This document shows positions 19,031 through 39,821 of a stretch of DNA of 43,578 nucleotides, one piece after another; positions within the stretch are counted from its first letter, which is position 1; each line of letters opens with the position of its first letter. The stretch lies in the NCBI GenBank assembly GCA_020347605.1, contig CP070734.1, positions 2,129,278 through 2,172,855 of the forward strand, given 5' to 3'. Source of the DNA: Deltaproteobacteria bacterium. GTDB lineage: Bacteria > Myxococcota_A > UBA9160 > G020347605. Both the position numbers and the translations under genes were made by a program. The notes beneath the pieces are model-generated. The model ran no database searches. It worked only from the letters and a program-made list of their open reading frames with translations, and was not told where the DNA came from.

Positions 19031-19034
19031 GTCG

Positions 19035-22724: not shown

Positions 22725-22837
22725 CGGGCGCGCGGCCCCCCGAGATGCGGAATGCGCCGGTCATACTAGGATCTGGTGCGCGGTCCACGCAACACGGGCG
22801 ACCGCCTGCGGAATCGCCCGACGAGGGGAGCGGACGC

Positions 22838-24424
22838 GTGAAGCTGGCAGCCTCGCCCGAGCGGGAACGCACGATTCCCCGGCTCGTAGATGCCGCCGCC
22901 GAACGCTTCGGCGAGCGCAGCGCGATCGAAGACGGCGACGCGAAGCTCTCCTTCGCCGAGCTCCGCGACGCCGCGCGGCGGGCCGCGCGCGCCTTCTGCG
23001 CCGCCGGGATCCAGCCGGGCGACCGCGTCGCGATCTGGGCCCCGAACATCTTCGAGTGGATCCTGGCCTCGATCGGGCTGCAATCGGCGGGCGCCGTCCT
23101 CGTCACGCTCAACACCCGCTTCAAGGCCGCCGAGGCCGCCTACGTGCTGCGCAAGAGCGGCGCTCGCATCCTGTGTACGGTGGGCGGGTTCCTGGGTACC
23201 CGCTACGTGGACCTGATCGCCGGGGAAGAGCTGCCGGCGCTGGAGCGGATCGTCGCGCTGCGCGGCGAGGCCGAGGGCGCGGTGCCCTGGCCCGAGTTTC
23301 TGGCCGACGGCGAGTCGGTGTCCGAGGCCTCGGTCCGCCAGCGCGCGGACGCCGTGTCGCCCGAGGATCTGTCGGACCTGCTCTTCACATCGGGCACCAC
23401 GGGCAAGCCCAAGGGCGTCATGACCGCTCACGGGCAGAACTTGAAGGCGTTCGAGACCTGGACCGAGGTGGTGGGGCTCCGCGAGGGGGACCGCTACCTG
23501 ATCATCAACCCCTTCTTCCACGGCTTCGGTTACAAGGCCGGCTGGCTGTCGGCGATCATGCGCGGGGCCACCATCATCCCGCAGCCGGTGTTCGACGTGC
23601 CGGCCGTGCTCGAGCGCATCGGGCGCGAGCGGATCAGCGTCCTGCCGGGGCCCCCGGCGCTCTACCAGTCGATCCTGGCCCACCCCGACCGCGCCCGGTA
23701 CGACCTCTCGTGTCTGCGGCTTGCGGTGACCGGCGCAGCCGCCATTCCGGTGGAGCTGATCCACCGCATGCGCGACGAGCTGGGCTTCGACACCGTCATC
23801 ACCGGCTACGGCCTGACGGAGAGCTGCGGCGTGGTCAGCATGTGCCGCTACGACGACGACCCGGAGACGATCGCCAACACCTCGGGGCGGGCGATCCCCG
23901 ACGTCGAGGTGCGCTGCGTCGACCGCGACGGCAAGGAGGTTCCGCGCGGCCAACCCGGCGAAGTGGTCGTGCGCGGCTACAACCTCATGAAGGGCTACTT
24001 CGAGGAGGAGGCGGAGACCCGCCAGGCCATCGACGCCGACGGCTGGCTGCACACGGGCGACATCGCGGTGATGGACCCGCGCGGCTACCTGCGGATCACC
24101 GACCGCATCAAGGACATGTTCATCATGGGCGGCTTCAACTGCTACCCGGCCGAGATCGAGAACATCATGTTCGGGAGCGGACGCTTCGCACAGGTCGCGG
24201 TGATCGGCGTGCCGGACGCGCGCATGGGCGAGGTGGGCATGGCGTTCGTGGTGCCGGCGCCCGGGCAGGAGCTCACGCCCGACGGCGTGATCGCCTGGTG
24301 CCGCGAGAACATGGCCAACTACAAGGTCCCGCGCTTCGTGGAGATCGTCGATGCGCTGCCCACGACGGCCTCCGGAAAGGTCATGAAGTACGTGCTGCGC
24401 GAGCGCGCACGCGCCGCGCGCTGA
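22838..24424 (+). CDS. AMP-dependent acyl-CoA synthetase/ligase (FadD-type)
   Basis: The AMP-binding motif LLFTSGTTGKPKGVM, plus GYGLTES, WLHTGDIAVMDPRGYLRITDRIKD and SGKVMK are present. I prefer GTG 22838 because gaggggag lies upstream at 22823-22830. The track start ATG 22745 is in frame. Confidence 0.9.
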   Translation: MKLAASPERERTIPRLVDAAAERFGERSAIEDGDAKLSFAELRDAARRAARAFCAAGIQPGDRVAIWAPNIFEWILASIGLQSAGAVLVTLNTRFKAAEAAYVLRKSGARILCTVGGFLGTRYVDLIAGEELPALERIVALRGEAEGAVPWPEFLADGESVSEASVRQRADAVSPEDLSDLLFTSGTTGKPKGVMTAHGQNLKAFETWTEVVGLREGDRYLIINPFFHGFGYKAGWLSAIMRGATIIPQPVFDVPAVLERIGRERISVLPGPPALYQSILAHPDRARYDLSCLRLAVTGAAAIPVELIHRMRDELGFDTVITGYGLTESCGVVSMCRYDDDPETIANTSGRAIPDVEVRCVDRDGKEVPRGQPGEVVVRGYNLMKGYFEEEAETRQAIDADGWLHTGDIAVMDPRGYLRITDRIKDMFIMGGFNCYPAEIENIMFGSGRFAQVAVIGVPDARMGEVGMAFVVPAPGQELTPDGVIAWCRENMANYKVPRFVEIVDALPTTASGKVMKYVLRERARAAR

Positions 24425-24451: not shown

Positions 24452-24856
24452 TCACGGCTGCGCGGCGAGCCCCTTCAACACCAGCTGGTCGTAGGCCACG
24501 ATGCCCTTGATCTCCTGGCCGTCGATCACGGGCGCGGCGGAGATGCCGAAGCGCTGGAAGAGCCGCGCGCAGTAGCGGATGTCCATCTCCGGCTTCACGG
24601 ACAGCACCGGCTTCGACATGATCTCGTAGACGTTGGTGCGCTCGGGGGAGCGATTCTGCGCCAGCACCTGCTTGGCGATGTCCGCGACCAGCACGATGCC
24701 GAACTCGTCGTCCTCGTGGCGTTTGGCGACGATCAGGAAGCGGGCGTTCTTCGCCCGCATCGTCGCGAGCGCCTCCGCCACCGTCGCGACCCCGTCCACG
24801 ATGGCGAAGTCCAGCTCCATGACGTCGGACACTCGAACCAGACTCTTCTCCGTCAC
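24452..24856 (-). CDS. CBS-domain pair protein (stand-alone)
   Basis: 134 aa, consisting of two CBS repeats (VSDVME...VATVAEALATMRAKNARFLIV... and IMSKPVLSVKPEMDIRYCARLFQRFGISAAPVI). The GTG start overlaps the stop of the PII-like gene (GTGA). Confidence 0.85.
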   Translation of the reverse strand: MTEKSLVRVSDVMELDFAIVDGVATVAEALATMRAKNARFLIVAKRHEDDEFGIVLVADIAKQVLAQNRSPERTNVYEIMSKPVLSVKPEMDIRYCARLFQRFGISAAPVIDGQEIKGIVAYDQLVLKGLAAQP

Positions 24857-25206
24857 AGCTCCTCCTCCTCGAGGCTGGGCGTGATGCTCTCGACCTGATG
24901 CGTGACGCCCACGGCGTCCTCGACGTCGATCTGGAATGCTATGCCGGTGCCGGGCGTCGTGTCGAATTCGCCGGCTTCGCCGACCGTCTCCAGGATCTGG
25001 CGCGCGCGGTGCTCCTCGACGAGCAGCAGGACCATGTCCCGCTGCGTCTCCAGGCTCAACCCGAGGAAGGTCTTCTTCTCCTCGAGCCCTTCCCCGCGCG
25101 CGTTGGTGATGACGGTGCAGCCGGTGGCCCCGGCTTCACGGGCGGCTTTCGTGATGGTGTCCGTCTTGTGGTCGTCTGCGAAGACGACGATCAGCTTGAA
25201 CCGCAT
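24853..25206 (-). CDS. P-II (GlnB)-like signal-transduction protein, divergent
   Basis: 117 aa from ATG 25206: MRFKLIVVFADDHKTDTITKAAREAGATGCTVITNARGEG...MVLLLVEEHRARQILETVGEAG...GTGIAFQIDVEDAVG. This gives a beta-alpha-beta x2 pattern with the GxG(K)IF-like motif of PII. The upstream 175 codons of track ORF 24853-25731 are an out-of-frame read of the DUF1538 gene. Confidence 0.75.
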   Translation of the reverse strand: MRFKLIVVFADDHKTDTITKAAREAGATGCTVITNARGEGLEEKKTFLGLSLETQRDMVLLLVEEHRARQILETVGEAGEFDTTPGTGIAFQIDVEDAVGVTHQVESITPSLEEEEL

Positions 25207-26030
25207 GCTGGGTCTCCTCCAGAAGCGTTGGAATCTCCGGTCGGCGGTGCGTCGGCCGGGGTGTTGCGCGCGGCGTACCACGCCGATGCCTGTGCGTAGG
25301 CGAGGACGGAGATCATGGGAAACAGACTGGCGAAGGCGATGAGCCCGAACCCGTCGATCAATGGGCTGCGCCCCGGGACCGTCTCGGCCAGGCCCAACCC
25401 GAGCGCCGCCAGGATCGGCACGGTCACGGTGGAGGTCGTGACGCCGCCCGAGTCGTAGGCCAGCGGCACGATGAAGCGGGGCGCGAACAGCGTCTGCACG
25501 ACCACCACGACGTAGCCGATGGCGATCAGCTCGTGCAGGGGCGCACCGACGACGATGCGGAACACGCCCAGGGTCACGCCGATGGCCACGCCGACCGCGA
25601 CCGCGATCCGCAGGCCGTGGGCCTTGATGGCGCCGGCGGACAGCTCGTCGGCCTTGAGGGCCACCGCGATCAGCGCCGGCTCGGCGATCGTGGCGCTGAA
25701 GCCGATCGCGCCGGCGAATGCGTACACCCACACGTAGGCGCTGGGGTCGACGGACGCGACCGCCGCGGCGTTCGGCCCACCGCCGATGAACGCCGGGTCG
25801 GTCAGCTGGGCCGCCATGATCCGGCCCAGTGGAAAGAGCGCCTGATCGAGACCCAGCAGGAACAGCGTCAGACCCGCAATGGCGTAGGCGAACCCCACGA
25901 GGAGCCGCTTCGGGCTGGGCGGCGCCTGGCGCAACACGAAGAACTGGAACGTCACGAGGATCGTCGCGATCGGGAGGACGTCGCGCAGGGTCTCTCCCAG
26001 GACACCGAACGGCGCGGCCAACGGCAGCAT
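25191..26030 (-). CDS. DUF1538-family integral membrane protein (subunit 2)
   Basis: 279 aa from ATG 26030 ([33 protein letters not shown]...). It is a paralog of the upstream gene and shares [30 protein letters not shown] and [12 protein letters not shown]. Its start shares 1 nt with the upstream stop. Confidence 0.8.
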   Translation of the reverse strand: MLPLAAPFGVLGETLRDVLPIATILVTFQFFVLRQAPPSPKRLLVGFAYAIAGLTLFLLGLDQALFPLGRIMAAQLTDPAFIGGGPNAAAVASVDPSAYVWVYAFAGAIGFSATIAEPALIAVALKADELSAGAIKAHGLRIAVAVGVAIGVTLGVFRIVVGAPLHELIAIGYVVVVVQTLFAPRFIVPLAYDSGGVTTSTVTVPILAALGLGLAETVPGRSPLIDGFGLIAFASLFPMISVLAYAQASAWYAARNTPADAPPTGDSNASGGDPACGSS

Positions 26031-26761
26031 CAGATGAGCATCCCGTAGAGCAGCACGAAGAGGATCGGCGTGAGCGACGCGAACGCGATCAGCCCGAAGC
26101 CATCGGTGACGGGATTGCGCCCCTTGATGGACGACGCGAGACCGATACCGAGAGCGGTGACCAGAGGCACCGTGATGGTCGACGTGGTCACGCCGCCGGA
26201 ATCGTAGGCGATCCCCACGATCTCCGGGGGCGCCAACGCCGTCAAGACGACGACCAACAGATAGCCGGTGGCGATCATCGCGTGGATCGGCCAGCCCGTG
26301 AGGATGCGCCAGACGCCGATCACGATGGCCGTGCCGACGGAGAGCGCCACGGTGAACCGCAGACCGAGCGCATAACGCCCGCGCGCGAGCTCGGTGTCGG
26401 CGATGGCGCCGGCGCGGGCCGCGACCTCGGAGGCCTCGTTGGCGATGGCGATGAGCGCGGGCTCGGCCGCTGTGGTGCCGAACCCGAGCGCGAAGGAGAA
26501 CCCGACGAGCCACGCCAGCGAGCCCTTGCGGGCGAACGCGTGGGCCATGCTCTCTCCCAACGGGAACAGTCCGAGCTCGAGGCCGCGGACGAAGCAGGCC
26601 AGGCCCAGGATCACCAGGGCGAGGCCGGTCAGAAGCGCGCCGAATTCCGGTATCGGTTGCCGCAGGACGACCAGCTGGAAGACGCCGATCACCAGGATGA
26701 TGGGCGCGAGATCCTGGGCGCTGCGCGCGATCGGGCGAAACATCGATTTCAGCCAGGACAT
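26030..26761 (-). CDS. DUF1538-family integral membrane protein (subunit 1)
   Basis: 243 aa with multiple TM helices. The motifs [35 protein letters not shown] and [12 protein letters not shown] are present. Confidence 0.8.
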
Positions 26762-27011: not shown

Positions 27012-27458
27012 ATGAGCATCACGCGGATCGCGCTTTCCCTGGTCGGATTCGGTGCGGGCCTCGGGCTCGCGAGCGCTGCGCTGGCGGGTCCGCCGCCGGC
27101 CACGGGGTGCGCGGCTGACTGGCCGAGCACCAGCATCACCACGATCGCGAAGGGCCAGTCGGCCAGCCAGAACGCCAAGATCTCGCACGCCATCACCGGC
27201 AACATCGTGGGTGGCGCCGCCGCCTACGGGGACACCGCGCACCGGATCAAGATCTGCTCCGGTACCGCGGTCGACATCGCGATCACGTGCAGCAGCGCGG
27301 GCTGCCCCACGACCGGCCCCACCATCACCAAGGAGGTGGGCGGCAGCTTCTGCAACAGCGCGGGGTGCACGGTCCCGTCCCTGGACGGCAAGTTCAAGTA
27401 CGTCGTGACCTCCGAAGACGGCAAGGACACGGACGCGGTGACGCTGCTCCCGCAGTAG
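27012..27458 (+). CDS. small secreted Cys-containing hypothetical protein ('AGPPP' N-terminus)
   Basis: ATG follows aggag. The signal peptide is MSITRIALSLVGFGAGLGLASAALA, followed by GPPPATGC. The mature part has 6 Cys. A strong hairpin follows the gene. Confidence 0.55.
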   Translation: MSITRIALSLVGFGAGLGLASAALAGPPPATGCAADWPSTSITTIAKGQSASQNAKISHAITGNIVGGAAAYGDTAHRIKICSGTAVDIAITCSSAGCPTTGPTITKEVGGSFCNSAGCTVPSLDGKFKYVVTSEDGKDTDAVTLLPQ

Positions 27459-27500: not shown

Positions 27501-27528
27501 AGACGCCCCGGCTCCGGCCGGGGCGTCT
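27501..27528 (+). terminator. perfect 12-bp GC hairpin downstream of the small secreted-protein gene
   Basis: agacgccccggc - tccg - gccggggcgtct, 43 nt after the stop. No U-tract follows, which may be the norm at this GC content. Confidence 0.5.
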
Positions 27529-27651
27529 GCGTCTGGGTCCTCCGAGTCCCGCTCTCCCCGCGCGGCGCGCATGACCCCGGTCATACGGGTCCAATCGGCG
27601 ATGTGGCATCCAGTCCCGGGTCGGATGCCGAGCCAGCGAGGAGGGCGGAAC

Positions 27652-30420
27652 GTGGCCGAAACCCGGGGCCCCTGGGCCGACGCCTATCGGAAGAAGTGGA
27701 CCTGGGACAAGGTCGCCTGGGGAAGCCATGCGGTCGACTGCTACCCGGGCGGGTGTCCCTACCGGATCTACGTGAAGGACGGGCGCGTCGTCCGCGAGGA
27801 GCAGGCCGGCAGCTTCTCTCCGGTCGAGCGCGGCATTCCCGACATGAACCCGATGGGCTGCCAGAAGGGGGCCTGCTGGAGCCAGCTGCTCACGGCTCCG
27901 GATCGCGTCACGCACCCGCTGAGGCGCGTGGGGGAGCGCGGCGAGGGACGGTTCGAGCGCGTCTCCTGGGACGAGGCGTTCACCGACATCGCGGACGCGA
28001 TGCTCGACGCCCTGCAGGAGGACGGACCCGAATCGATCATCACGCTGATGACGCCCGAGCTCGGCGGCTCGCCCGCGCGCCTGTTCGCCGACGTGCTCGG
28101 TACGCCGACGACCGACGGCAACGCCGAGTTCCAGGACTTCAGCCCGGGCTGGCATTTGACCTGGGGCGTGTTCAACCCCACGGCCTCGATGGACGACTGG
28201 TTCCTGGCCGAGCTGACGCTGATCTGGCACGCCAATCCGGTCTACACGAACATCCACTGGTATCACTACGTCGCCGAGTCGCGCTACAACGGCGGCGAGG
28301 TCGTCACGATCTCGCCCGACTACAGCCCCTCTGCGATTCACGCCGACTACCACGTGCCGGTCCGGATCGGCAGCGACGCCGCGCTCGCGCTCTCGATGTG
28401 CCAGGTCATCGTCGACGGGAAGCTCTACGACCGCACCTTCGTACAGGAGCAGACCGACCTGCCGCTCCTGGTGCGCAAGGACACGGCCCGCTTCCTGCGC
28501 GGCAGCGAGGTCAACGAGGGCGACCGGGACGACCAGTTCTTCTGGCTGGATTCGCGCTCGCGGATCGTGACGCCCGCGCCGCGCGGTACGCTCGCGACCG
28601 GCGACGTGGATCCCGCGCTCGAGGGAAGCGCCACCGTGACGCTCAAGGACGGCACCCGCGTGGAGGTGGAGCCCGCCTTCGAGCGCCTCAAGCGGCGGCT
28701 CGAGGACTACGAGCCGGCGCGCGCGTCGAAGCTGTGCGGCGCGCATCCGGACGCGATTCGCAAGCTCGCGCGCAAGGTCGCCACGCGGCGCACCAAGATC
28801 TTCATCGGCTGGAATTCGGGCAAGTACTACCACGGGGACCTGATGGAGCGCTCGATGGCGCTGCTGCTCGGGCTCACCGGAAACTGGGGGCGCAAGGGAA
28901 CCGGCACGCGCTCCTGGGCGGTGGCGGGCTGGGACAGCTTCGTCTTCCTGTCGCAGAAGGCTCGGCCCGGTCAGGACGCCGCCCGCGAGTACCTGCAGAA
29001 CCTGGTGCAGATGCGTCGCCTGATCGCCCAGGACGACCCGACGCAGACGCTCGAGATGATCTCGAATCGCGCCGCCTCGATGAGTCCCGAGCTCAGCGGC
29101 ATGGGTCGCATGATGCCGCCGGCCTTCCTCTGGTACTACCGCTACGGCTATCGGGACCGCTGGAACGATCCGAAGAACCACGATCCCTCGATGAAGCGAA
29201 GCTTCGACGCGTACATGAACGAAGCGATCGAGAAGGGCTGGTGGGATGCCAGCTACGCCAAGGCCTACCAGGAGGTGTCGCCGCGCGTTTTGTTCGAGGC
29301 GGGTGGCAACATCCTGCGCCGGCAGCGCGGCGGACAGAAGCTCCTGCTCGAGAACCTCTGGCCGCAGCTGCGCATGATCGTGTCGGTGGACTTCCGGATC
29401 ACCACGACGGGGATGTACTCCGACTACATCCTGCCGGCGGCGCAGCACTACGAGAAGCTCGGCCAGAGCATGCCGTCGGTGCATCACCTCAACTGGGTGC
29501 TGTGCGATCGCGCGGTCGACCCGCCGGACGAAGCGCTCTCCGACAACGAGATCGGCCTGCGCCTGGTGGAGAAGCTCGAGGAGCGCGCGGCGGCGCGGGG
29601 CCTGACGGGCTTCACGGACCGCGCGGGCACGCCCCGCTCGCTCACGGGGCTCATGGCGCGTGCCACGCTGAACGGCGCCTTCCGGGACGAGGAGAAGATG
29701 TTCGACGAGGCGCTGCGCGACAGCGCGGCCTACGGGATCCTGCCGCCCGACGCGAGCCTCGACACGCTGCGCGAGAAGGGTCACCTGCGCTGGACCGCGT
29801 GGGGGATGATCGGCCACGGGCAGGCCCAGGCCTCGACGCTGCGGCCCGACGAAGTCCACAACCCGTTCCGCTGGCACACCGAGGAAAAGGTCCCGTACGC
29901 GACGCTCACCCGGCGCGCGCAGTACTACATCGACCACGAGTGGTTCCTCGAGGCCGGCGAGGAGCTTCCGATGCACAAGGAGCCGCCCGGCCAGGGCGGG
30001 CCCAAGCGGCGCTTCCAGCTGACCAGCGGCCACAACCGCTGGAGCATCCACTCGATGAACATGCCCAACCGGACCCTGCTCAACACGCATCGCGGCGAGC
30101 CGTTCGTGTTCCTGAACGATCGCGACGCGGCGGAGCTCGGCATCGAGGGCGGCGACAAGGTGCGCCTGTCGAGCGACGCGGGTGCCATGCTGCTGGTCGC
30201 GAAGCTCACGCCCGCCTGCCGACCGGGGCAGGTGATCCTCTACAACGGCTTCGAGCCCTACATGCACGAGCAGTGGTACAGCCAGTCGGACCTGGAGCCG
30301 GGACACGTCAAGTGGCTCGGGCTGGCGGGCGGCTACGGCCACCTCCAGTACCGGCCGCTGGCCTGGCAGCCGATCCCCGCCGATCGGGCCATCCGGGTGG
30401 ACGTCGCGAAGGCGGGCTGA
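27652..30420 (+). CDS. Mo-bisPGD oxidoreductase catalytic (alpha) subunit, type II DMSO-reductase family (NarG/EbdA/DdhA/SerA-like), no Tat signal
   Basis: AYRKKWTWDKVAWGSHAVDCYPGGCPYRIYVKDGRVVREEQ...(x34)...GCQKGAC is the N-terminal FS0 [4Fe-4S] motif. HPLRRVGERGEGRFERVSWDEA, ISPDYSPSA, and C-terminal GEPFVFLNDRDAAELGIEGGDKVRLSS (the Mo-pterin-binding beta-barrel) are also present. I prefer GTG 27652 because gaggagg (27638-27644) lies 7 nt upstream. In-frame ATGs at 27571 and 27601 are alternatives. Confidence 0.9.
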   Translation: MAETRGPWADAYRKKWTWDKVAWGSHAVDCYPGGCPYRIYVKDGRVVREEQAGSFSPVERGIPDMNPMGCQKGACWSQLLTAPDRVTHPLRRVGERGEGRFERVSWDEAFTDIADAMLDALQEDGPESIITLMTPELGGSPARLFADVLGTPTTDGNAEFQDFSPGWHLTWGVFNPTASMDDWFLAELTLIWHANPVYTNIHWYHYVAESRYNGGEVVTISPDYSPSAIHADYHVPVRIGSDAALALSMCQVIVDGKLYDRTFVQEQTDLPLLVRKDTARFLRGSEVNEGDRDDQFFWLDSRSRIVTPAPRGTLATGDVDPALEGSATVTLKDGTRVEVEPAFERLKRRLEDYEPARASKLCGAHPDAIRKLARKVATRRTKIFIGWNSGKYYHGDLMERSMALLLGLTGNWGRKGTGTRSWAVAGWDSFVFLSQKARPGQDAAREYLQNLVQMRRLIAQDDPTQTLEMISNRAASMSPELSGMGRMMPPAFLWYYRYGYRDRWNDPKNHDPSMKRSFDAYMNEAIEKGWWDASYAKAYQEVSPRVLFEAGGNILRRQRGGQKLLLENLWPQLRMIVSVDFRITTTGMYSDYILPAAQHYEKLGQSMPSVHHLNWVLCDRAVDPPDEALSDNEIGLRLVEKLEERAAARGLTGFTDRAGTPRSLTGLMARATLNGAFRDEEKMFDEALRDSAAYGILPPDASLDTLREKGHLRWTAWGMIGHGQAQASTLRPDEVHNPFRWHTEEKVPYATLTRRAQYYIDHEWFLEAGEELPMHKEPPGQGGPKRRFQLTSGHNRWSIHSMNMPNRTLLNTHRGEPFVFLNDRDAAELGIEGGDKVRLSSDAGAMLLVAKLTPACRPGQVILYNGFEPYMHEQWYSQSDLEPGHVKWLGLAGGYGHLQYRPLAWQPIPADRAIRVDVAKAG

Positions 30421-30477
30421 GACGCGTCCGGGAACGCACGCTCGCGGGAGCTTGCGTCAAGCGAGGAGCGAGATCCG

Positions 30478-31509
30478 ATGGGAAGCCTCACCGAGTCGAA
30501 GCGCCAGCTCGCCTGGGTATTCGATCTGAACAAATGCATCGGCTGCCAGACCTGCTCGGTCGCGTGCAAGGTGCTCTGGACCGAGGACGCGGGTGCGGAA
30601 CCGATGTGGTGGATGTCGGTGAACACGCAGCCGGGCCGTGGCACCCCGCGCGACTGGGAGAAGATGGGCGGCGGCTGGGACGACGGAAGGCCGGTGCTCG
30701 GCAAGCTCCCGACGCCGGAGGAGTTCGGCGGCGGCTGGGACTTCAACTACGACGAGGTGCTGCGGGGCGGGCGGGGGCGCGACGCGCACCTCACCAAGGT
30801 CGGCGGCAGCAAGACCTGGGGCATGAACTGGGACGAGGACGAGGGCGGCGGGGAGTTCCCGAACGCCTACTTCTTCTACCTGCCGCGCATGTGCAACCAC
30901 TGCAGCCGGCCCTCCTGCCTCGACGCGTGCCCGAACGACGCGCTCTTCAAGCGGGAGGAGGACGGCCTCGTGCTGCGCGACGAAGACCGCTGCAAGGGCG
31001 CGCAGAAGTGCGCGCGCGCCTGCCCGTACAAGAAGATCTACTTCAACGAGGCGCGCAAGGTGAGCCAGCACTGCATCGGTTGCTTCCCGCGCATCGAACA
31101 GGGTGTCGCGCCGGCGTGTGTTCGACAGTGCCCGGGGCGGGCCGCCTTCGTGGGGTTCCTCGACGATCCGGCCGGCGCGGTGGCGAAGCTGGTCCGTCAG
31201 TGGAACGTCGCGCTGCCGCTGCATCCGGAGTTCGGGACCCGGCCGAACGTGTACTACGTGCCCCCGCTCGCCCCCGCTCCGCTGCGCGAGGACGGCAGCT
31301 TCGACGAAGGGGGCTCGCGGATCCCACCCTCCTACCTCGAATCGCTGTTCGGAGAAGAGGTGCACGGCGCCCTCGACCTGCTGCGCACCGAGCTCGACAA
31401 GAAGCGCCGCGGGCAGGGCTCGGAGCTGCTGGACACGCTGATCCTGTACCGCTGGAAGGATGCGCTCGGGCACCTCGACCGCGACCCCGCGGAGATCGTC
31501 TGGGACTGA
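30478..31509 (+). CDS. iron-sulfur (beta) subunit of the type II Mo enzyme (NarH/EbdB/DdhB-like), 3x[4Fe-4S]+[3Fe-4S] pattern
   Basis: The four Cys groups are CIGCQTCSVAC, CNHCSRPSCLDACP, CKGAQKCARACP (second Cys missing, as in the [3Fe-4S] site) and CIGCFPRIEQGVAPACVRQCP. ATG follows gaggag. Confidence 0.9.
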   Translation: MGSLTESKRQLAWVFDLNKCIGCQTCSVACKVLWTEDAGAEPMWWMSVNTQPGRGTPRDWEKMGGGWDDGRPVLGKLPTPEEFGGGWDFNYDEVLRGGRGRDAHLTKVGGSKTWGMNWDEDEGGGEFPNAYFFYLPRMCNHCSRPSCLDACPNDALFKREEDGLVLRDEDRCKGAQKCARACPYKKIYFNEARKVSQHCIGCFPRIEQGVAPACVRQCPGRAAFVGFLDDPAGAVAKLVRQWNVALPLHPEFGTRPNVYYVPPLAPAPLREDGSFDEGGSRIPPSYLESLFGEEVHGALDLLRTELDKKRRGQGSELLDTLILYRWKDALGHLDRDPAEIVWD

Positions 31510-31524
31510 GATCCGGCGCCCGCG

Positions 31525-32130
31525 TCAGTCCGAGGCCCCGGCGCGCGGCGTGATGCCCTTCAAGACCAGCTCGATGGCGGGCCGGACGAGCTTCGGGTTG
31601 ATGCGCGCCCCGGCGAAGAAGACCCGCATGGCGATCGGCCCGAAGATCAGGTCGGCGACCAGCTCGAGATCCAGGTCGTCCCGCACCTCACCGCGCTCGA
31701 CGGCGCGCTCGAGCGCCCGGAGGACGGGCTTGCGCCGGCCGCGGAGGATCGGATCGATGAGCTCGGAGAGCTCCGGGTTGTGGGCGCGTTCGCCGGCCAG
31801 GCTGGGCATCACGGCAGCCAGGGGCGTGTCGTTCAGGATGCGCAGATAGCTCCCCAGCATCTGCTCGAGGTCCTCCACCAGGTCGCCGGTGTCCACCTCG
31901 GCGAGCCCCGGCAGCTGGCGGAAGGCCTCGATCACGAGGTGGAGCTTCGAGGGCCAGCGCCGGTAGATCGTGGCCTTTCCGACCCCGGCGCGCGTCGCCA
32001 CGCCTTCCACGGTCAGCCCCGAGAAGCCCGCCTCGACCAGCAGCGCCAGCGTCGCGTCGAGGATGGCCTGGTGGGCCTCCTCGCTCCGAGGCCGGCCGGC
32101 GCTCACGGGGGTCTGCGCGTTGGAGCTCAT
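31525..32130 (-). CDS. TetR/AcrR-family transcriptional regulator
   Basis: The N-terminal HTH is ILDATLALLVEAGFSGLTVEGVATRAGVGKATIYRRWPSK. 201 aa. The gene is convergent with the Mo-enzyme operon, with a 15-nt gap. Confidence 0.9.
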   Translation of the reverse strand: MSSNAQTPVSAGRPRSEEAHQAILDATLALLVEAGFSGLTVEGVATRAGVGKATIYRRWPSKLHLVIEAFRQLPGLAEVDTGDLVEDLEQMLGSYLRILNDTPLAAVMPSLAGERAHNPELSELIDPILRGRRKPVLRALERAVERGEVRDDLDLELVADLIFGPIAMRVFFAGARINPKLVRPAIELVLKGITPRAGASD

Positions 32131-32512
32131 CGGGACTCCCAGAACCGCACGCGGGCGGCGACCCGTCCGGATCCCGCGGAGGTCCCCTGGGATCCGATGT
32201 CCATTACGATACTAACCGTTCCGTTCAGGAGCTGCGCAGGCGCCGCGGCCTACCGCACGGGAAGCGGGATGGGGTGGAAAAGAATTTCCCTTCTGGTGGA
32301 AGCGGCGTCGCACGGGACCGACCGGGCTGGCTCCAGAGGCCTCCGCGCCGCTCCTGACGCCGTTCTACGCGTTGCGCGGCGGCGTGATTCTTGCAAAACG
32401 TAGACCGATCGGGTGGGCGACCCGTAAACCCGGACAGCCCGTCGCGCGGTTCGCCGCTGGGAGGAGATGCGGCCCAAACCTGGTTCGAGGCGCAAGCCGC
32501 GGAGGATACTTC

Positions 32513-33052
32513 GTGAGGAAAGCAATCTCGCTGGGCTCCGTGCCCGCTCTCTTGTTCGGTCTCGCGGTGGCCAACATCGCGGAGGCGGGTCCGCCGCCGG
32601 TGCAGAAGGAGTGCAGGCCGTTGGTGACGCGCCTCGCGACGCCGGGGAAGATCTCCCTAACGGGCGCCAAGGGCTTCCTGCTGACCAAGTCCGCCACCGT
32701 CAAGGGGACGCTGGTGAGCGACGAGACGGTGTGCCCCGACGGCGCGACCCGCGAGATGGAGGTCGACCTGGCCGTCATCAACAGCGCGAACCAGTTGATC
32801 TTCTCGGACACCATCGACATGGGTCGCAGCGGTGTGCTGCTCTACACCGAGGGCTCGAACACGGCCACCAAGTTCTTCGTGCCGTTCGACTCGAGTGCCT
32901 GCAACGGCGTCCCGGCGCCCGGCAGCGGCGTCACCACCGAGGGAACCCTGACCTACGTCGCGACGCCCCGGATCACCGAGGCGGGGCCGGATCAGGGCAA
33001 CATCGGGACGGAGACCAAGGTGATTCCGGTCTTCTGCAAGGCCGCGCGCTGA
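32513..33052 (+). CDS. small secreted hypothetical protein ('AGPPP' N-terminus, 4 Cys)
   Basis: GTG 32513 lies 6 nt after ggagga (32501-32506). The signal peptide is VRKAISLGSVPALLFGLAVANIAEA, followed by GPPPVQKEC. The 47 upstream codons of track ORF 32372-33052 are Arg/Gly-rich and probably non-coding. Confidence 0.55.
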   Translation: MRKAISLGSVPALLFGLAVANIAEAGPPPVQKECRPLVTRLATPGKISLTGAKGFLLTKSATVKGTLVSDETVCPDGATREMEVDLAVINSANQLIFSDTIDMGRSGVLLYTEGSNTATKFFVPFDSSACNGVPAPGSGVTTEGTLTYVATPRITEAGPDQGNIGTETKVIPVFCKAAR

Positions 33053-33153: not shown

Positions 33154-33585
33154 CTAGGCCAGCACCCAGCGCGGCAGATGGATCGCGTCGCTCACGGGCT
33201 CGAAGACGACGCGGACCGCGGCGCCGATCTCGATCGTGGCCGGATCGACCTCGTCGATCGGACCGCCGGCGCGCGCCACCAGGTTGCCGACCAGCCGGAT
33301 CGTCGGATCCTCGTCGAGCGCCACCACGATCACGTTGTACGGCGCGAGCTCCGCAAACTGCGGCAGGAGCGGCGGATGGGGCACGACGAAGGACCAGATC
33401 GCGCCCCGGCCCGAAACCGCCGTCCAGACCGGCTCCGCGTGCGGGTCCCACGGGCTCATCGGGCGGGGGGGGAAGATCAGGCGACCGGTGACCGCACAGC
33501 GCTGGATGCGCAGCTCGCCGTTGCGCGCGCCCTCCCAGAAGGGCGCCGAGTCCGCATCCACCGGCGGCAGTAGCGGCTCGCTCAC
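33154..33585 (-). CDS. DUF35 (OB-fold / degenerate Zn-ribbon) acyl-CoA-associated protein
   Basis: GTG start. FWEGARNGELRIQRCAVTGRLIFPPRPMSP is the ribbon region, retaining only one Cys. It is followed by the OB-fold GAIWSFVVPH...APYNVIVVALDEDPTIRLVGNL. The gene sits 3 nt downstream of the thiolase-like gene, the classic pairing. Confidence 0.8.
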   Translation of the reverse strand: MSEPLLPPVDADSAPFWEGARNGELRIQRCAVTGRLIFPPRPMSPWDPHAEPVWTAVSGRGAIWSFVVPHPPLLPQFAELAPYNVIVVALDEDPTIRLVGNLVARAGGPIDEVDPATIEIGAAVRVVFEPVSDAIHLPRWVLA

Positions 33586-33588
33586 CGC

Positions 33589-34728
33589 CTACTTCCTCAG
33601 AATGAGGGCGCTCGTGGGAACGCCCTCTCCGGCGGTGACCAGACACGCGTCCGCGTCCCGAACGGGGTTCACCGACGTTCCGCGGATCTGGCGCACCCCC
33701 TCGTTGATCAGGTTGAAGCCGTGGACGTAGGCCTCCGACAGTCCGCCGCCCGACGTGTTGATGGGCAGGCGCCCGCCGATCTCGAGCGCGCCGCCCTCGG
33801 TGAAGGCCGCCCCCTCGCCCTTCGCACAGAATCCGTAGCCCTCCAGCGAGAGCGGAATCAGCGGCGTGAACGCGTCGTACAGCTGCGCGACCGGAATGTC
33901 GTGGGGCTTGATGTCGGAGCGCCGGTAGAGCTGTCGTGAACACGTCCACGCCGGACCGGTGAGCGGGTCCTCGCACCAGTAGTTGACCATGGTGTGCGAC
34001 TGACGGGGTAGACCCTGCCCGAAGGCGTGCACGTAGGCCGGAGGCTGACGACAGTCACGCGCGCGCTCGGCGGAGACCAGCACGCACGCCAACGCCCCGT
34101 CCGTCTCGAGGCAGTTGTCGAACAGACACAGCGGCTCCGAGATCCAGCGCGCCGCCATGTAGTCCTCGCGCGTGAGCCGGCGCTCGTACATCAGCGCGCG
34201 CGGATTGTGGTTGGCCATCGTGCGCACGGCGATGGCCACGTTGGCGAGGTGGTCGCGCGTCGCGCCGTACTCGTGCATGTAGCGGCGCGTCAGCATCGCG
34301 ATCTCGTCGACCGGTCGCAGCAGTCCCCACGGCCGCGTCCAGCGGGCCGGCGCGCTGAAGGCCTGGGACGCGCCGGCCCACGGGCGAGCGCCCGAGCCGC
34401 GCTTGCGCGAGCGCCAAGCCACCCCGACCCGGCACTGGCCGGCCGCGATGGCCATCGCCAGCTGGCCGACCGTCGCCGGGCCGGCGCCGCCGCCGTAGCC
34501 GACCTGGCTGAAGAACGTCACGTCGCCCGCGCCGATGTTCTTCGCCACCTCGACCTCGTCCGTGGCCTCCATCGTGTAGGAGGCGAAGCCGTCGACCTCC
34601 GACGGAGAGACTCCGGCGTCGTCGAGCGCGGCGAGGATGGCCCGGACCGCGAGTGTCTTCTCCGGGGCGTCGAGCTTCCTGGCGAATGCGGTCTCGCCGA
34701 TCCCGACGATGGCGGCGGCGTCCTTCAC
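33589..34728 (-). CDS. thiolase-fold protein of the SCP-x/Ltp2 type (apparently lacking both thiolase catalytic Cys)
   Basis: 379 aa from GTG 34728 (VKDAAAIVGIGETAFARK...). The motifs FFSQVGYGGGAGPATVGQLAMAIAAG, LYDAFTPLIPLSLEGYGF and INTSGGGLSEAYVHGFN are present. The start overlaps the ligase stop (GTGA). Track ORF 33589-35994 extends spuriously upstream. Confidence 0.85.
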   Translation of the reverse strand: MKDAAAIVGIGETAFARKLDAPEKTLAVRAILAALDDAGVSPSEVDGFASYTMEATDEVEVAKNIGAGDVTFFSQVGYGGGAGPATVGQLAMAIAAGQCRVGVAWRSRKRGSGARPWAGASQAFSAPARWTRPWGLLRPVDEIAMLTRRYMHEYGATRDHLANVAIAVRTMANHNPRALMYERRLTREDYMAARWISEPLCLFDNCLETDGALACVLVSAERARDCRQPPAYVHAFGQGLPRQSHTMVNYWCEDPLTGPAWTCSRQLYRRSDIKPHDIPVAQLYDAFTPLIPLSLEGYGFCAKGEGAAFTEGGALEIGGRLPINTSGGGLSEAYVHGFNLINEGVRQIRGTSVNPVRDADACLVTAGEGVPTSALILRK

Positions 34729-36350
34729 GCCGCACCCGGCTTCCGTGTGTGTACGTTCGCGGCGCCCGCATCGAAGCGCTCGACGAACCAGCGCTCCTGC
34801 GGCTTCTCCGATGCCGTCTTGGGAATCTCGTCCACGACCTGCACGTAGCTCGGCACGAAGTTCGCCTCGAGCTCGGCGCGACAGCGCTCGAAGATCGAGG
34901 CCGGGTCGAGTCCGCCCTCGCCCACCGGGACGATCGCCGCCACGACGTCCTTCTCGCCGGGCGTTCCCGAGGCGGCCGGCACGCCGTACACGAAGACGTC
35001 GCGGACGCTCGGGTGCTCCGCGATGGCCTTCTCGACGAAGCCCGGATTCACGAACTCCCCGTTGTGGCGGATACCGCCCCCGGCGCGGTAGTCGAAGAAG
35101 AGCCAGCCGTCGGCGTCGGCGTGGCCCATGTCGCCGCTGTGGTTCCAGCCGCCGCGCAGCTTGCGGGCGGAGGCCTCCGGGTCGCCGAAGTACTCGAGGG
35201 TGGCCGGATCGCCCCCGGCCGGGCGCGTGCAGATCTCCCCGACGACACCGGGTGGGCACACGTCTCCGTTCGCGTCGAGCACCTTCATCTCGAGGCCCGG
35301 CATCGGCTTGCCGAACGATCCGGTCGGGCCCTCGCCCACCGGCTTGTACGCCATGCCGCCGCCGTCCATGGCGCCGTAGAACTCGAGGATCTTCACGGCG
35401 AAGCGTTTCTCGAAGGGCTCCCAGATCGCGGCGGGCATCCCGCCGGAGACGACCCGGCGAACGGGGTTGTCGGCGTCGTCGGGCCGCGGCGGCTCGCTGT
35501 AGATGCCCATGGCCATGCCCCCGACCAGCGAGAAGCTCGTGCAGCCGTACGCGCGACACACGTCCCACAGCCGCGATTTCGTGAAGCGCCGGGAGAGCAC
35601 GGCCCGCAGCCCCCGGGTCAGGGCGGGGGCGAGCGTGACGGACTGGGCGTTTCCGTGGGTGAGCGAGAGGCCGGTGTACGGCCGCTCGTCCTCTCCGTAG
35701 GCGAACAACGCGCCGAGCACGCCCGCTGCGCAGAAGCGCGCATTCGAGCCGACGATCCCCTTCGGATCGCCGGTGGTGCCCGAGGTGTACATGATCTGGA
35801 GCGGCGCATCGGGGCTCGGCACGCGCGCGTCGAGACTCGGGGCCGGCTCGGCGAGCACCTCCGCGAGGGAATCGACGCCGCGGAAGCTCGTACGTGCGGG
35901 CGCGTCGCCACCGGTCTCGAGTGCCAGCACCCATTCGAGGCCAGCGAGCTGCGCGCGCACCGCGTCGAGCTGGAAAAGACAGTAGTCCGCGCACAGAATG
36001 CCGCGGCAGCCCGACCGGCCGAGCAGGTAGAGGAGCTTCTCGCCCCGGGTGCGCGGATCGATCGGAACGAATACGGCGCCGCTCGCGGAGGCGGCGACCA
36101 TCGCCTCCACGAACTCGGGGTGGTTGCCCATCATGATCGCGAAGCGCTCCCCCGGCGCGAGACGCCTCGCCAGGAGACCCGCCGCGATCCGATTGGCGTT
36201 CGCATCGAGGTCGGCGTAGCTGCGCACCTCGTCCGGCGTCGCGCGCCCGTCCAGGCTCAGATGCTCGAAGGTCAGGACGGGGAGATCCGGTTGCCGCTCG
36301 GCGCGGATCCGGATCAGGTCGGCCAGGATCATCTCGCTGCGTTCGCGCAT
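34725..36350 (-). CDS. AMP-dependent acyl-CoA synthetase/ligase
   Basis: IMYTSGTTGDPKGI, FYGAMDGG, WNHSGDMGHADADGWLFFDYR and the C-terminal TASEKPQ (Lys motif) are present. 541 aa; the internal Met at aa 7 is an alternative start. Confidence 0.9.
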   Translation of the reverse strand: MRERSEMILADLIRIRAERQPDLPVLTFEHLSLDGRATPDEVRSYADLDANANRIAAGLLARRLAPGERFAIMMGNHPEFVEAMVAASASGAVFVPIDPRTRGEKLLYLLGRSGCRGILCADYCLFQLDAVRAQLAGLEWVLALETGGDAPARTSFRGVDSLAEVLAEPAPSLDARVPSPDAPLQIMYTSGTTGDPKGIVGSNARFCAAGVLGALFAYGEDERPYTGLSLTHGNAQSVTLAPALTRGLRAVLSRRFTKSRLWDVCRAYGCTSFSLVGGMAMGIYSEPPRPDDADNPVRRVVSGGMPAAIWEPFEKRFAVKILEFYGAMDGGGMAYKPVGEGPTGSFGKPMPGLEMKVLDANGDVCPPGVVGEICTRPAGGDPATLEYFGDPEASARKLRGGWNHSGDMGHADADGWLFFDYRAGGGIRHNGEFVNPGFVEKAIAEHPSVRDVFVYGVPAASGTPGEKDVVAAIVPVGEGGLDPASIFERCRAELEANFVPSYVQVVDEIPKTASEKPQERWFVERFDAGAANVHTRKPGAA

Positions 36351-39814: not shown

Positions 39815-39821
39815 CCGTGGA

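Follow-up and report, generated by a model that had tools for sequence, protein, structure and literature searches.

The closest known system is the ethylbenzene dehydrogenase (EBDH) of Aromatoleum aromaticum, EbdABC(D) (PDB 2ivf), in which the catalytic alpha subunit has an Asp molybdenum ligand, the Lys450 partner of that Asp, and the His/Cys3 ligands of cluster FS0. The 15 cluster cysteines of its beta subunit, EbdB, serve FS1 to FS3 ([4Fe-4S]) and FS4 ([3Fe-4S]), and ebdC (EB_dh haem b) and ebdD (NarJ-like) are encoded past beta. EBDH is active with high-potential acceptors only (PMC8840923). The steroid C25 and C26 dehydrogenases (S25DH1-4/S26DH1) of Sterolibacterium denitrificans, which fall in the same EBDH-like subgroup as the pair described here, are alpha-beta-gamma enzymes with haem b that need the chaperone SdhD, and their catabolic setting ends in CoA-dependent side-chain degradation (PMC6016249, PMC6153880, PMC7411048). 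This species has eight alpha paralogs, all eight of them Tat bearing, and fewer beta (and gamma) genes, so that subunits are shared; alpha1, for example, is produced with beta3 and gamma3 (PMC6016249). Tat signals are present on 17 of 17 named EBDH-like alphas (PMC7411048, Suppl. Table 3). Respiratory nitrate reductase (NarGHI) and the cytoplasm-facing nitrite oxidoreductase are type II alpha-beta enzymes on the cytoplasmic side, which shows that the family is workable without export; narJ and narI are part of the nar operon. PadBCD (phenylacetyl-CoA:acceptor oxidoreductase) offers a precedent, as a Mo-bisPGD enzyme on the cytoplasmic side that uses water to hydroxylate a CoA thioester and delivers the electrons to quinone. 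PadBCD is from another subfamily of DMSOR enzymes, in which beta is small and DmsB-like and a further subunit serves as membrane anchor.

We analyzed a 43.6-kb stretch of DNA, referred to as the window, that encodes an alpha-beta pair related to EbdA and EbdB, and used a canonical ebd-type locus (L009) for comparison. The features of the window are as follows, where L005 is a 90%-identical ortholog locus in which the gene order is syntenic:

27640 to 27645, + strand: GGAGGG ribosome-binding site, read from the sequence, 6 nt 5' of GTG 27652
27652 to 30420, + strand: alpha (catalytic) subunit, 922 amino acids, start GTG 27652
27727 to 27861, + strand: FS0 motif H-x3-C-x4-C-x34-C (HAVDCYPGGC...NPMGC), residues 53 to 97 of the 949-amino-acid reading
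28135 to 28137, + strand: codon of the predicted molybdenum-ligand Asp (FQDFSPG)
30478 to 31509, + strand: beta (electron-transfer) subunit, 343 amino acids, four Cys groups
31525 to 32130, - strand: TetR-family regulator, convergent, 15 nt past beta, syntenic in L005
32372 to 33052, + strand: small secreted-looking protein, function unassigned, same position in L005
33154 to 38383, - strand: catabolic operon, syntenic in L005, made up of the next five genes
33154 to 33585, - strand: DUF35/ChsH2-like OB protein
33589 to 34728, - strand: thiolase-like "lipid-transfer protein"
34725 to 36350, - strand: acyl-CoA ligase
36361 to 37149, - strand: nitroreductase-family flavoprotein
37181 to 38383, - strand: acyl-CoA dehydrogenase (ACAD)
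38591 to 41087, + strand: two family III CoA-transferases, divergent from the catabolic operon, the first syntenic in L005

The longest open reading frame for alpha runs from ATG 27571 to 30420 on the + strand and gives a maximum of 949 amino acids. GTG 27652 is likely the true start, because it follows the GGAGGG at 27640 to 27645 and yields the 922-amino-acid length seen in most homologs. A public protein with 100% identity to alpha (P0001) is annotated at 922 amino acids, and 65 of 120 alpha homologs have only 7 residues ahead of the conserved Trp. The initial annotation had read the two genes as a type II Mo-bisPGD alpha-beta pair with the hallmarks of the NarG/EbdA clade on alpha and four NarH/EbdB-type Cys groups on beta. 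Both hallmarks (YRKKWTWDK and the FS0 His/Cys motif) and all four Cys groups were found, and the pair can be placed on the EbdA branch. Alpha has the Pfam domains Molybdopterin and Molydop_binding and aligns over its full length with EbdA (PDB 2ivf_A; E 5.7e-213, 40% identity); PcrA, the second-best solved relative, follows at E 1e-135, and NarG (1e-49) and NxrA (1e-38) are much more distant. Beta is 52% identical to EbdB and has all 15 of its cluster Cys; from the four Cys groups, three clusters of the [4Fe-4S] type and one of the [3Fe-4S] type are predicted.

The FS0 His and Cys residues of alpha line up with the FS0 ligands of EbdA, and among the best 120 homologs the His is kept in 118, while none of the three Cys is missing from any of the 120. 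The predicted molybdenum-ligand Asp aligns with EbdA Asp223 and is Asp in 120/120 homologs, and its Lys partner (EbdA Lys450) is likewise kept in alpha and invariant. The alignments thus show all predicted ligands to be in place, for Mo-bisPGD (the Asp and its Lys partner) and FS0 in alpha and for FS1 to FS4 in beta. The FS0 motif had been read correctly as H-x3-C-x4-C-x34-C, but the statement that it is one residue longer than in EbdA was wrong: EbdA itself has H-x3-C-x5-C (HLNICWPQGSC), so the x4 spacing, invariant in the Tat-less clade, is no anomaly relative to EbdA. PcrA has H-x3-C-x3-C. Unlike EbdA, the window alpha has Glu in place of His192, a Glu that is invariant in the Tat-less clade, and Tyr in place of Trp87, and its score of 744 is far under the EbdA equivalog cutoff of 2000. 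The EBDH active-site His is also absent from S25DH (PMC6153880). On this evidence, alpha is predicted to carry Mo-bisPGD and the [4Fe-4S] cluster FS0 and is a member of the EbdA-like branch that lacks a Tat leader, and together alpha and beta are a predicted complete Mo/iron-sulfur enzyme, kin of the oxygen-independent hydrocarbon and steroid hydroxylases.

In contrast to EbdA, which has ~50 more N-terminal residues, the window alpha has no Tat leader at any candidate start, as had been claimed, and an export signal is absent from both alpha and beta. The alpha query matched 2570 proteins at E<=1e-50; the best 120 of these are 71 to 100% identical to it and all Tat-less, with the RRxFL motif in 0/120. 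Because an export signal is lacking and this absence is kept across the clade, the enzyme probably works inside the cell, in agreement with the cytoplasmic placement first proposed, and the Tat-less branch is one from which the export signal has been lost. The description of the pair as an "orphan" does not hold, since its family is conserved and very large: the alpha query gave the 2570 proteins above, a search of GTDB species genomes found 236 relatives, and the members of the Tat-less clade in Binatia-like MAGs number in the hundreds, a single genome having as many as 8 alpha paralogs. In the tree, which is neighbor-joining only, with 100 bootstraps and without labelled S25dA, CmdA, or AhyA, alpha lies outside any characterized clade. 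The Tat-less core has a bootstrap value of 100, as does the core plus the deeper Tat-less relative P0241 (52% identity), all four deeper Tat-less representatives join the core at 70, and the EbdA-like clade is placed as the sister group of the Tat-less one at 88. One Tat-less relative (P0251) comes from a Sterolibacterium sp. MAG and matches none of the eight tabulated Tat-bearing S. denitrificans alpha N-termini.

Our preferred reading, to which we give an even chance, is that alpha and beta make up the core of a Mo-bisPGD enzyme of the EBDH/S25DH type that is cytoplasmic and independent of Tat, and that would act as a water-dependent C-H hydroxylase/dehydrogenase and feed CoA-ester catabolism. 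The overall interpretation in the initial annotation is supported in part: it survives as a Tat-less EbdA-branch pair in the cytoplasm with a CoA link, and loses "orphan" and the FS0-length comparison.

As had been stated, the operon ends after beta. Pfam scans of the open reading frames in the window did not find the EB_dh, NarJ, or NarI families, and phmmer queries with EbdC and EbdD had no match among all its six-frame open reading frames; these searches covered 43.6 kb of the 3.67-Mb contig. The orthologs, too, lack conserved gamma and chaperone neighbors, and NarI, EB_dh, and NarJ are not among the 25 most frequent families of the 132 genes flanking Tat-less alphas. It is conceivable, though in our judgment unlikely, that this is a conventional alpha-beta-gamma enzyme with NarJ-type maturation whose gamma and delta are encoded elsewhere in the genome, act in the cytoplasm, and may be shared with Tat-bearing paralog clusters. 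Subunits in trans are normal in the clade, as 29 of 66 Tat-less alphas stand without an adjacent beta, and S. denitrificans alpha1, without its own beta or gamma, works with beta3, gamma3, and SdhD (PMC6016249). Supply of gamma or chaperone in trans to a cytoplasmic alpha-beta would be topologically possible, because EbdC-type gamma proteins, including those of related genomes, have no obvious signal peptide. EbdC-like gamma (PF09459) or EbdD-like delta (PF02613) genes occur within 10 kb in 11 of 77 flanks of Tat-less alphas; at L047 a NarJ-like gene follows a Tat-less alpha-beta on its strand at a distance of 2 kb, and EB_dh-like and NarJ-like open reading frames lie directly upstream of another at L057. 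A chaperone domain is fused to alpha in another Tat-less lineage (P0247), a sign that enzymes of the Tat-less kind may continue to depend on a chaperone.

Where the flanks can be resolved, however, the order is gamma-beta'-alphaTat(-alphaTat)-delta, and gamma does not stand beside the beta type of the Tat-less alphas. At L061, L020, L048, L026, and L086, gamma/delta adjoin Tat-bearing alphas and beta' (486 to 530 bits), and at L077 and L080 delta adjoins beta'. The Tat-bearing clusters at L007, L020, L026, L048, L061, and L086 are in the same Binatia-like genomes, often within 10 kb, and in the same EBDH-like superclade, but their alphas have RRxFL, they include an EB_dh gamma and a NarJ-like delta, and they occupy other tree branches. 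A beta type of its own goes with the Tat-less clade: of the 37/66 Tat-less alphas with an adjoining beta, 34 have the dedicated type (612 to 833 bits). By its 78% identity to the beta adjoining a Tat-less alpha at L007, versus 58 to 65% to beta', the window beta is assigned to this dedicated type. The split between Tat-less and Tat-bearing systems is blurred by the ambiguous cases L047, L057, and L083, the last having gamma next to a piece of a truncated beta where the locus ends and no Tat-bearing alpha visible there. Also against gamma in trans, P0241 is likewise encoded as beta-alpha with neither gamma nor delta, and a concatenated Binatia gamma+delta query gave 51 matches at E<=1e-5, 0/51 of them on the window's 3,670,899-bp contig, versus the 2570 for alpha at E<=1e-50; this outcome counts weakly, the search being limited by its word index. 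Finally, NarG retains a remnant Tat peptide that is bound by NarJ (PMC10609526), whereas the window alpha, with ~7 residues before the core, has no such peptide for NarJ-type chaperones.

The neighborhood had been described as one of CoA-ester catabolism, and its two AMP-ligases, two ACADs, three family III CoA-transferases, DUF35/thiolase-like pair, and convergent TetR gene are all present. For the small protein at 32372 to 33052, no evidence was found that it is an enzyme subunit, and its structure prediction (pLDDT 39.5) was too poor to use. The CoA link is real, as judged from synteny in L005 and from recurrence. The ligase, ACAD, and nitroreductase have orthologs that recur near Tat-less alpha(beta) at L007, L047, L018, L029, L022, L028, L062, L040, L030, L036, and L083, along with a thiolase-family gene that is distant from that of the window (81 to 97 bits). 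Tat-less alpha(beta) genes lie beside ACAD, thiolase, and CoA-ligase genes at ~12 of 80 related loci and form one operon with them once, at L007 (beta-alpha-ACAD-thiolase-CoA ligase, with gaps of 44, 0, and 11 nt). Among the 132 immediately flanking genes, TetR is the commonest family (10), followed by MFS (9) and ACAD (7). The link concerns a minority of loci, because most Tat-less alphas have unrelated neighborhoods.

These ties bear on a second alternative, that of a cytoplasmic reductase of nitrate, chlorate, selenate, or a DMSO-like S- or N-oxide, with a cytoplasmic donor feeding beta. The type II family is rich in such reductases, PcrA ranks second among the solved relatives, the alpha score under the TIGR03479 cutoff leaves family-level function not assured, and the cytoplasm is better suited to a low-potential donor than to a high-potential acceptor. 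We nevertheless regard a reductase as improbable, given the far closer match to EbdA than to PcrA or NarG, the grouping of the clade as sister of the EbdA-like one, the synteny and operon ties to ACAD, thiolase, CoA ligase, and TetR genes with none to anion transporters or respiratory genes, and the paralog numbers, which suit diversification on organic substrates over a single oxyanion. Export by piggy-backing on another Tat substrate, or decay of a nonfunctional copy of a periplasmic enzyme, is very improbable: betas of the EBDH-type family normally hitch-hike out on alpha and Tat-bearing paralogs are present in related genomes, but neither subunit has a signal, the window has no cotranscribed Tat-bearing gene, the cofactor ligands are invariant as described above, and GC3 (0.93 for alpha and 0.92 for beta) with 68 to 90% identity across genomes indicates purifying selection.

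For the cytoplasmic hydroxylase that we favor, the chemistry would be that of its nearest characterized relatives: Mo(VI)=O would take two electrons from a C-H bond and give back a water-derived OH. The substrate would be a hydrophobic alkyl or isoprenoid-type chain that is a CoA thioester already or soon after, the product would enter the adjoining ligase/ACAD/thiolase-like/DUF35 pathway, and the adjacent TetR regulator would control expression. Electrons would pass along the chain Mo, FS0, FS1-FS3, and FS4 (in beta) and then on to a partner encoded outside the operon. Since EBDH-type chemistry requires a high-potential acceptor, this partner is probably either a soluble redox protein or one linked to the membrane or to quinone. 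How such an acceptor could operate in the cytoplasm is puzzling on thermodynamic grounds, which counts against this reading. The multiple alpha paralogs, some without beta, probably differ in substrate specificity and would work on common beta subunits, as described for the S25DH isoenzymes. The clade is a large, unstudied branch that is expanded in Binatia-like soil bacteria, and the Tat-less variant of EBDH-like enzymes is thus a recurrent clade and not a one-off.

The window has a G+C content of 70%, and by third-position G+C the two reading frames that make up the alpha-beta pair are genuine genes.

27571 to 30420, forward strand, alpha subunit gene (third-position G+C, 0.93)
30478 to 31509, forward strand, beta subunit gene (third-position G+C, 0.92)

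The alpha protein contains the Pfam domains Molybdopterin and Molydop_binding and aligns end to end with EbdA, the alpha subunit of ethylbenzene dehydrogenase (EBDH; PDB 2ivf_A), with an E value of 5.7e-213, residues 14 to 948 of the query falling on residues 44 to 976 of EbdA with 40% identity across 912 aligned positions. Matches to the perchlorate reductase subunit PcrA (1e-135), NarG (1.7e-49, in four separate stretches only), and NxrA (1.5e-38) are weaker. The top NCBIfam model for alpha is TIGR03479 (type II DMSO reductase family, alpha subunit), which is matched over its full length save for its leader portion, with a score of 852.7, below the curated cutoff of 984.75. Alpha scores 743.7 bits on the EbdA equivalog NF042978 (cutoff, 2000) and 208.6 on the NarG model (cutoff, 1084). 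The beta protein is a four-cluster ferredoxin-like protein (Fer4_11) that is 52% identical to EbdB and has in common with it all 15 cluster cysteines, in four groups, of which group III contains three Cys (three [4Fe-4S] clusters and one [3Fe-4S] cluster are predicted). Its top NCBIfam model, TIGR03478 (the beta counterpart of TIGR03479), is matched over the full length with a score of 475.9, below the curated cutoff of 480.7, and it falls far below the cutoff of the EbdB equivalog.

The Tat signal of EbdA lies in an N-terminal stretch of ~50 residues for which the window alpha has no counterpart. The alpha frame opens at ATG 27571, and a ribosome-binding site (GGAGGG, 27640 to 27645) lies 6 nt 5' of GTG 27652, the start from which the identical public protein (P0001) is annotated. 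This gives a protein of 922 aa, which is also the length of most homologs. In 65 of 120 homologs (the best 120 of 2,570), the sequence N-terminal to the conserved Trp in the motif W-A-D-x-Y-R-K-K-W-T-W-D is just 7 residues long. None of the alpha starts yields an RRxFL motif or a hydrophobic region, and none of these best 120 of 2,570 homologs has an RRxFL-type motif. The position at which the frame opens, the ribosome-binding site before 27652, and the homolog N termini together rule out an upstream start with a Tat leader. The statement in the initial annotation that alpha lacks a Tat leader is therefore correct for every start of this gene and extends to all 120 of the best 120 of 2,570 homologs. 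Beta has no export signal either. Since neither subunit has a signal, the enzyme is predicted to be cytoplasmic, and alpha-beta must, on this reading, stay in the cytoplasm unless some partner carries it out.

For the cofactor sites, we rebuilt EbdA numbering from the PDB alignment and aligned the same 120 homologs (best 120 of 2,570). The predicted Mo-ligand Asp (FQDFSPG) corresponds to EbdA Asp223 and is invariant in 120/120. The cluster FS0 motif reads H-x3-C-x4-C-x34-C, and its His and three Cys align with the FS0 ligands of EbdA. In this set, these four residues are essentially invariant, as are Asp223 and Lys450. Two EbdA residues are replaced throughout the best 120 of 2,570: His192 is Glu in 120/120, and Trp87 is an invariant Tyr in the aligned homologs. 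Because steroid C25 dehydrogenase (S25DH) likewise lacks the EBDH active-site His (PMC6153880), the loss of His192 is no argument against hydroxylase chemistry. The FS0 motif had been read correctly in the initial annotation, which also held it to be one residue longer than that of EbdA; at the second FS0 Cys the spacing is in fact x5 in EbdA, x3 in PcrA, and x4 in the window alpha, so the supposed anomaly relative to EbdA does not exist. These comparisons show alpha to be a complete predicted Mo-bisPGD and FS0 subunit and beta to be a complete predicted FS1 to FS4 subunit, with no export signal on either. The Asp ligand, the His/Cys3 FS0 motif, and the four Cys groups of beta agree with membership in type II of the DMSO reductase family (the NarG/EbdA/DdhA/SerA/ClrA/PcrA group).

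Periplasmic EBDH-like hydroxylases (EbdABC, CmdABC, S25DH, and AhyABC) have a Tat leader, a gamma subunit gene in the operon, and a chaperone gene in the operon, whereas the window locus lacks all three. Pfam analysis of all credible ORFs in the 43.6-kb window detected no EB_dh (PF09459) gamma gene and no member of the NarI family, and Pfam likewise detected no NarJ/TorD-type chaperone (PF02613, Nitrate_red_del) in the window. Neither the gamma nor the chaperone family was found in L005, the syntenic locus of a 90%-identical ortholog. When EbdC (gamma) and EbdD (chaperone, delta) from the canonical ebdABCD locus L009 were compared by phmmer with all six-frame ORFs of the window, there was no match. 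Within the 43.6-kb window, the absence of gamma, chaperone, and NarI genes beside alpha-beta noted in the initial annotation is thus confirmed; a gamma subunit, chaperone, or membrane anchor may be encoded elsewhere in the genome. The locus also differs from NarGHI operons, which include narJ and narI; the window has neither family, and similarity to NarG is low. A concatenated gamma-plus-delta query gave 51 matches, 0 of them on the contig of the window, in a word-index search of limited sensitivity.

Beta is separated by 15 nt from a convergent TetR gene. A frameshifted or assembly-split operon is ruled out, since the order alpha-beta-TetR is kept in the 90%-identical L005. The protein encoded at 32372 to 33052 was considered as a cryptic gamma and rejected; it has no Pfam match, and its single-sequence AlphaFold pLDDT is 39.5. 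The ORF at 27012 to 27458 was likewise set aside; it is conserved in no related locus. These two ORFs flank the alpha-beta-TetR unit and encode small, Cys-containing, beta-rich proteins whose signal peptides both end A-x-A-G-P-P-P; the proteins are otherwise unrelated, and of the two, the downstream one alone is kept in L005. We dropped the argument that a Sec-exported gamma cannot meet a cytoplasmic alpha-beta, because EbdC and the Binatia gamma proteins have no obvious signal peptide; for the same reason, an EbdC-type gamma could in principle bind a cytoplasmic alpha-beta. No Moco riboswitch or other RNA was found upstream of alpha. A promoter and terminator consensus scan returned no sites. 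A GC-rich hairpin at 27501 to 27528, between the 148-aa ORF and the alpha promoter region, is a probable terminator; in sRNA models, it matches the terminator portion alone.

The alpha query retrieves 2,570 database proteins at an E value of ≤1e-50, of which the best 120, 71 to 100% identical, derive from MAGs that bear names such as Deltaproteobacteria and "Candidatus Binatia." With each GTDB species represented by one genome, a scan gave 236 alpha relatives, and 77 loci were taken from it. The MAGs with relatives are labeled Binatia, Deltaproteobacteria, Myxococcota, Dehalococcoidia, or Chloroflexota, all sampled loci have a G+C content of 62 to 72%, and as many as 8 Tat-less alphas are encoded in a single MAG (MFD09779.bin.1.97 and MFD03804.bin.2.13). 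In a neighbor-joining tree of 63 full-length sequences (100 bootstrap replicates), the Tat-less core has a bootstrap value of 100, as does the core together with P0241 (52% identical), an alpha whose gene forms a beta-alpha pair that lacks both gamma and delta. The grouping of four deeper Tat-less representatives (P0241, P0242, P0243, and P0251) with the core has a value of 70. The Tat-less group is sister to the EbdA-like clade (bootstrap, 88) in this tree, which is built without labeled S25dA, CmdA, and AhyA and from a sequence set in which the only published N termini matched are those of EbdA and an Immundisolibacter EbdA-like protein. P0251 (L087), which comes from a Sterolibacterium sp. 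MAG, is an EBDH-like alpha that has no Tat leader; its gene is followed by a TetR gene, and it matches none of the eight Tat-bearing alpha N termini tabulated for S. denitrificans Chol-1S. Loss of the Tat leader has also occurred in other lineages, e.g., in P0247, which has a NarJ-like domain (PF02613) fused at its N terminus. P0247 (1,152 aa) and P0275 (1,130 aa) form a separate Tat-less EBDH-like lineage with an N-terminal extension of ~240 aa, which in P0247 is a NarJ/TorD-type chaperone domain, placing chaperone and catalytic subunit in one protein.

Among 66 Tat-less alphas with enough flanking sequence, 37 have an adjacent beta (32 downstream and 5 upstream) and 29 have none. One beta type, with 612 to 833 bits to the window beta, accounts for 34 of the 37, showing that Tat-less alphas own a dedicated beta. 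In five loci (L061, L020, L048, L026, and L086), Tat-bearing alphas instead lie beside a second type, beta' (486 to 530 bits; 58 to 65% identity to the window beta), together with a gamma and a delta that Pfam confirms as EB_dh and NarJ-like, respectively (gene order, gamma-beta'-alpha(-alpha)-delta); in L077 and L080, delta adjoins beta'. In L007, alpha paralogs have clear Tat leaders (RRGFLR, RRQVLR, and RRDFLR). Where related loci do have a chaperone gene, its neighbor is in most cases a Tat-bearing paralog. Based on the distinct betas and on the gamma and delta genes beside Tat-bearing alphas, we conclude that in these Binatia-like organisms a canonical exported system operates alongside a Tat-less system that has its own beta. 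The observation made for the window is upheld and generalized. Islands that mix Tat-bearing clusters with Tat-less alpha(beta) units are found in L007 (694 to 20274, with four alphas in 22 kb), L020, L026, L048, L061, and L086. The picture is ambiguous in three loci. In L047, a NarJ-like gene lies on the same strand as a Tat-less alpha-beta, 2 kb downstream of it. In L057, at a contig edge, the ORFs immediately upstream of a Tat-less alpha-beta are EB_dh-like and NarJ-like. In L083, a gamma adjoins a truncated beta fragment where the locus ends, and 9 kb separate it from the Tat-less pair. At 13915 to 16648 in L047, directly after alpha-beta, the gene for a 639-aa Tat-signal protein, with a flavin amine-oxidase domain and with cytochrome c at its C terminus, precedes the NarJ-like gene.

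L005 keeps the order alpha, beta, TetR, small protein, DUF35, thiolase-like protein, CoA ligase, nitroreductase, acyl-CoA dehydrogenase (ACAD), and CoA-transferase, and its upstream side is unlike that of the window. L007 has beta followed by Tat-less alpha, ACAD, thiolase, and CoA ligase, and the gaps of 44, 0, and 11 nt among the last four indicate that alpha, ACAD, thiolase, and ligase form one operon. In ~12 of 80 loci, a Tat-less alpha(beta) has beside it orthologs of the window ligase (750 to 1,020 bits), ACAD (380 to 790 bits), and nitroreductase, accompanied by a thiolase-family gene. A census of 132 immediate flanking genes is heterogeneous (144 families), led by TetR (10), MFS transporters (9), and ACADs (7), and no respiratory anchor or heme subunit is among its 25 most frequent families. 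These loci show a recurrent link of Tat-less alpha(beta) to cytoplasmic acyl-CoA enzymes. The window ligase encoded at 22745 to 24424 reaches the FadD3-family cutoff and the window thiolase-like protein reaches the "lipid-transfer protein" model, a combination that hints at steroid/terpenoid-type side-chain and ring catabolism. Elsewhere in the window are a reverse-strand operon (24452 to 26761) in which two DUF1538 membrane proteins are encoded with a P-II-like and a CBS-domain protein and which is divergent from alpha and not conserved beside homologs; a 1,171-aa signaling protein with a double zinc ribbon, adenylate/guanylate cyclase, AAA_16 ATPase, and TPR repeats (13989 to 17504); and two tandem TRL-like small lipoprotein genes (18710 to 19436). 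Tandem Lambda_Bor-like lipoproteins lie near the alpha gene in L001.

To our knowledge, every characterized EBDH-type hydroxylase is a Tat-exported alpha-beta-gamma heme enzyme that passes electrons to periplasmic cytochrome c. The characterized substrates are ethylbenzene, p-cymene, and steroid C25/C26; the alkane C2 enzyme is putative. Jacoby et al. found Tat signals on all 17 named EBDH-like alphas that they tabulated, namely, S. denitrificans alpha1 to alpha8, CmdA, four EbdA proteins, and the HdN1, Steroidobacter, T. terpenica, and D. oleovorans Hxd3 proteins (PMC7411048), and reviews place EbdA, CmdA, S25dA, SerA, ClrA, and DdhA in the periplasm (PMC10100899). There is precedent in S25DH for many alphas on shared subunits (PMC6016249). 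In the literature searched, we found no mention of a Tat-less EBDH-like clade or of Binatia together with EBDH-like enzymes. The window pair, beside which neither gamma nor delta is encoded, is an unstudied, Tat-less, paralog-rich form of a known kind of enzyme.

By analogy with the nearest characterized relatives, a C-H bond would be oxidized by two electrons at Mo(VI)=O, a water-derived OH would rebound onto the substrate, and the electrons would pass along five Fe-S clusters. In EBDH, the Mo and heme potentials are above +250 mV, and activity requires a high-potential acceptor or cytochrome c (PMC8840923); a cytoplasmic counterpart of such an acceptor is not obvious. A candidate membrane partner or electron exit is orf139, a four-helix, His-rich membrane protein of approximately 139 residues that has no Pfam family and has the conserved motifs RTAHL, YGGHxYG, and SSHMPGRxRYYS. 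It is absent from the window.

Loci that contain orf139
L018, 9241 to 9693, directly upstream of a Tat-less alpha
L022, 5391 to 5879, directly upstream of a Tat-less alpha
L023, 335 to 787, directly upstream of a Tat-less alpha
L029, 5221 to 5673, directly upstream of a Tat-less alpha
L056, 225 to 683, directly upstream of a Tat-less alpha
L035, 3324 to 3713, ~6 kb from alpha, on the opposite strand
L007, 5377 to 5796

The initial interpretation of the locus as an orphan cytoplasmic alpha-beta Mo-bisPGD enzyme among CoA-ester genes is, as a whole, partly supported. We tentatively propose, as a possibility that we consider rather unlikely in its full form, that the Tat-less clade consists of distinct cytoplasmic, oxygen-independent C-H hydroxylases, heme-free alpha-beta enzymes that act on acyl-CoA, intracellular lipid, or isoprenoid substrates and use a new type of acceptor, for which orf139 is one candidate. 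With a sister clade that is large, conserved, Tat-less, and apparently devoid of gamma, this difficult chemistry would move into the cell, near CoA-dependent catabolism, which raises the issues of a cytoplasmic high-potential acceptor, of type II maturation without an N-terminal chaperone-binding peptide, and of paralog substrate range. S25DH has already been used to make 25-hydroxyvitamin D3 (PMC6016249), and a soluble cytoplasmic two-subunit enzyme could be simpler to produce. Metagenomic counts of "EbdA/CmdA/AhyA-like" genes as periplasmic anaerobic hydrocarbon activation may mislabel the Tat-less clade. If the proposal is true, the expansion to 8 or more paralogs per genome would mean that Binatia-like soil bacteria turn over hydrocarbons and lipids by a major route that has been overlooked.
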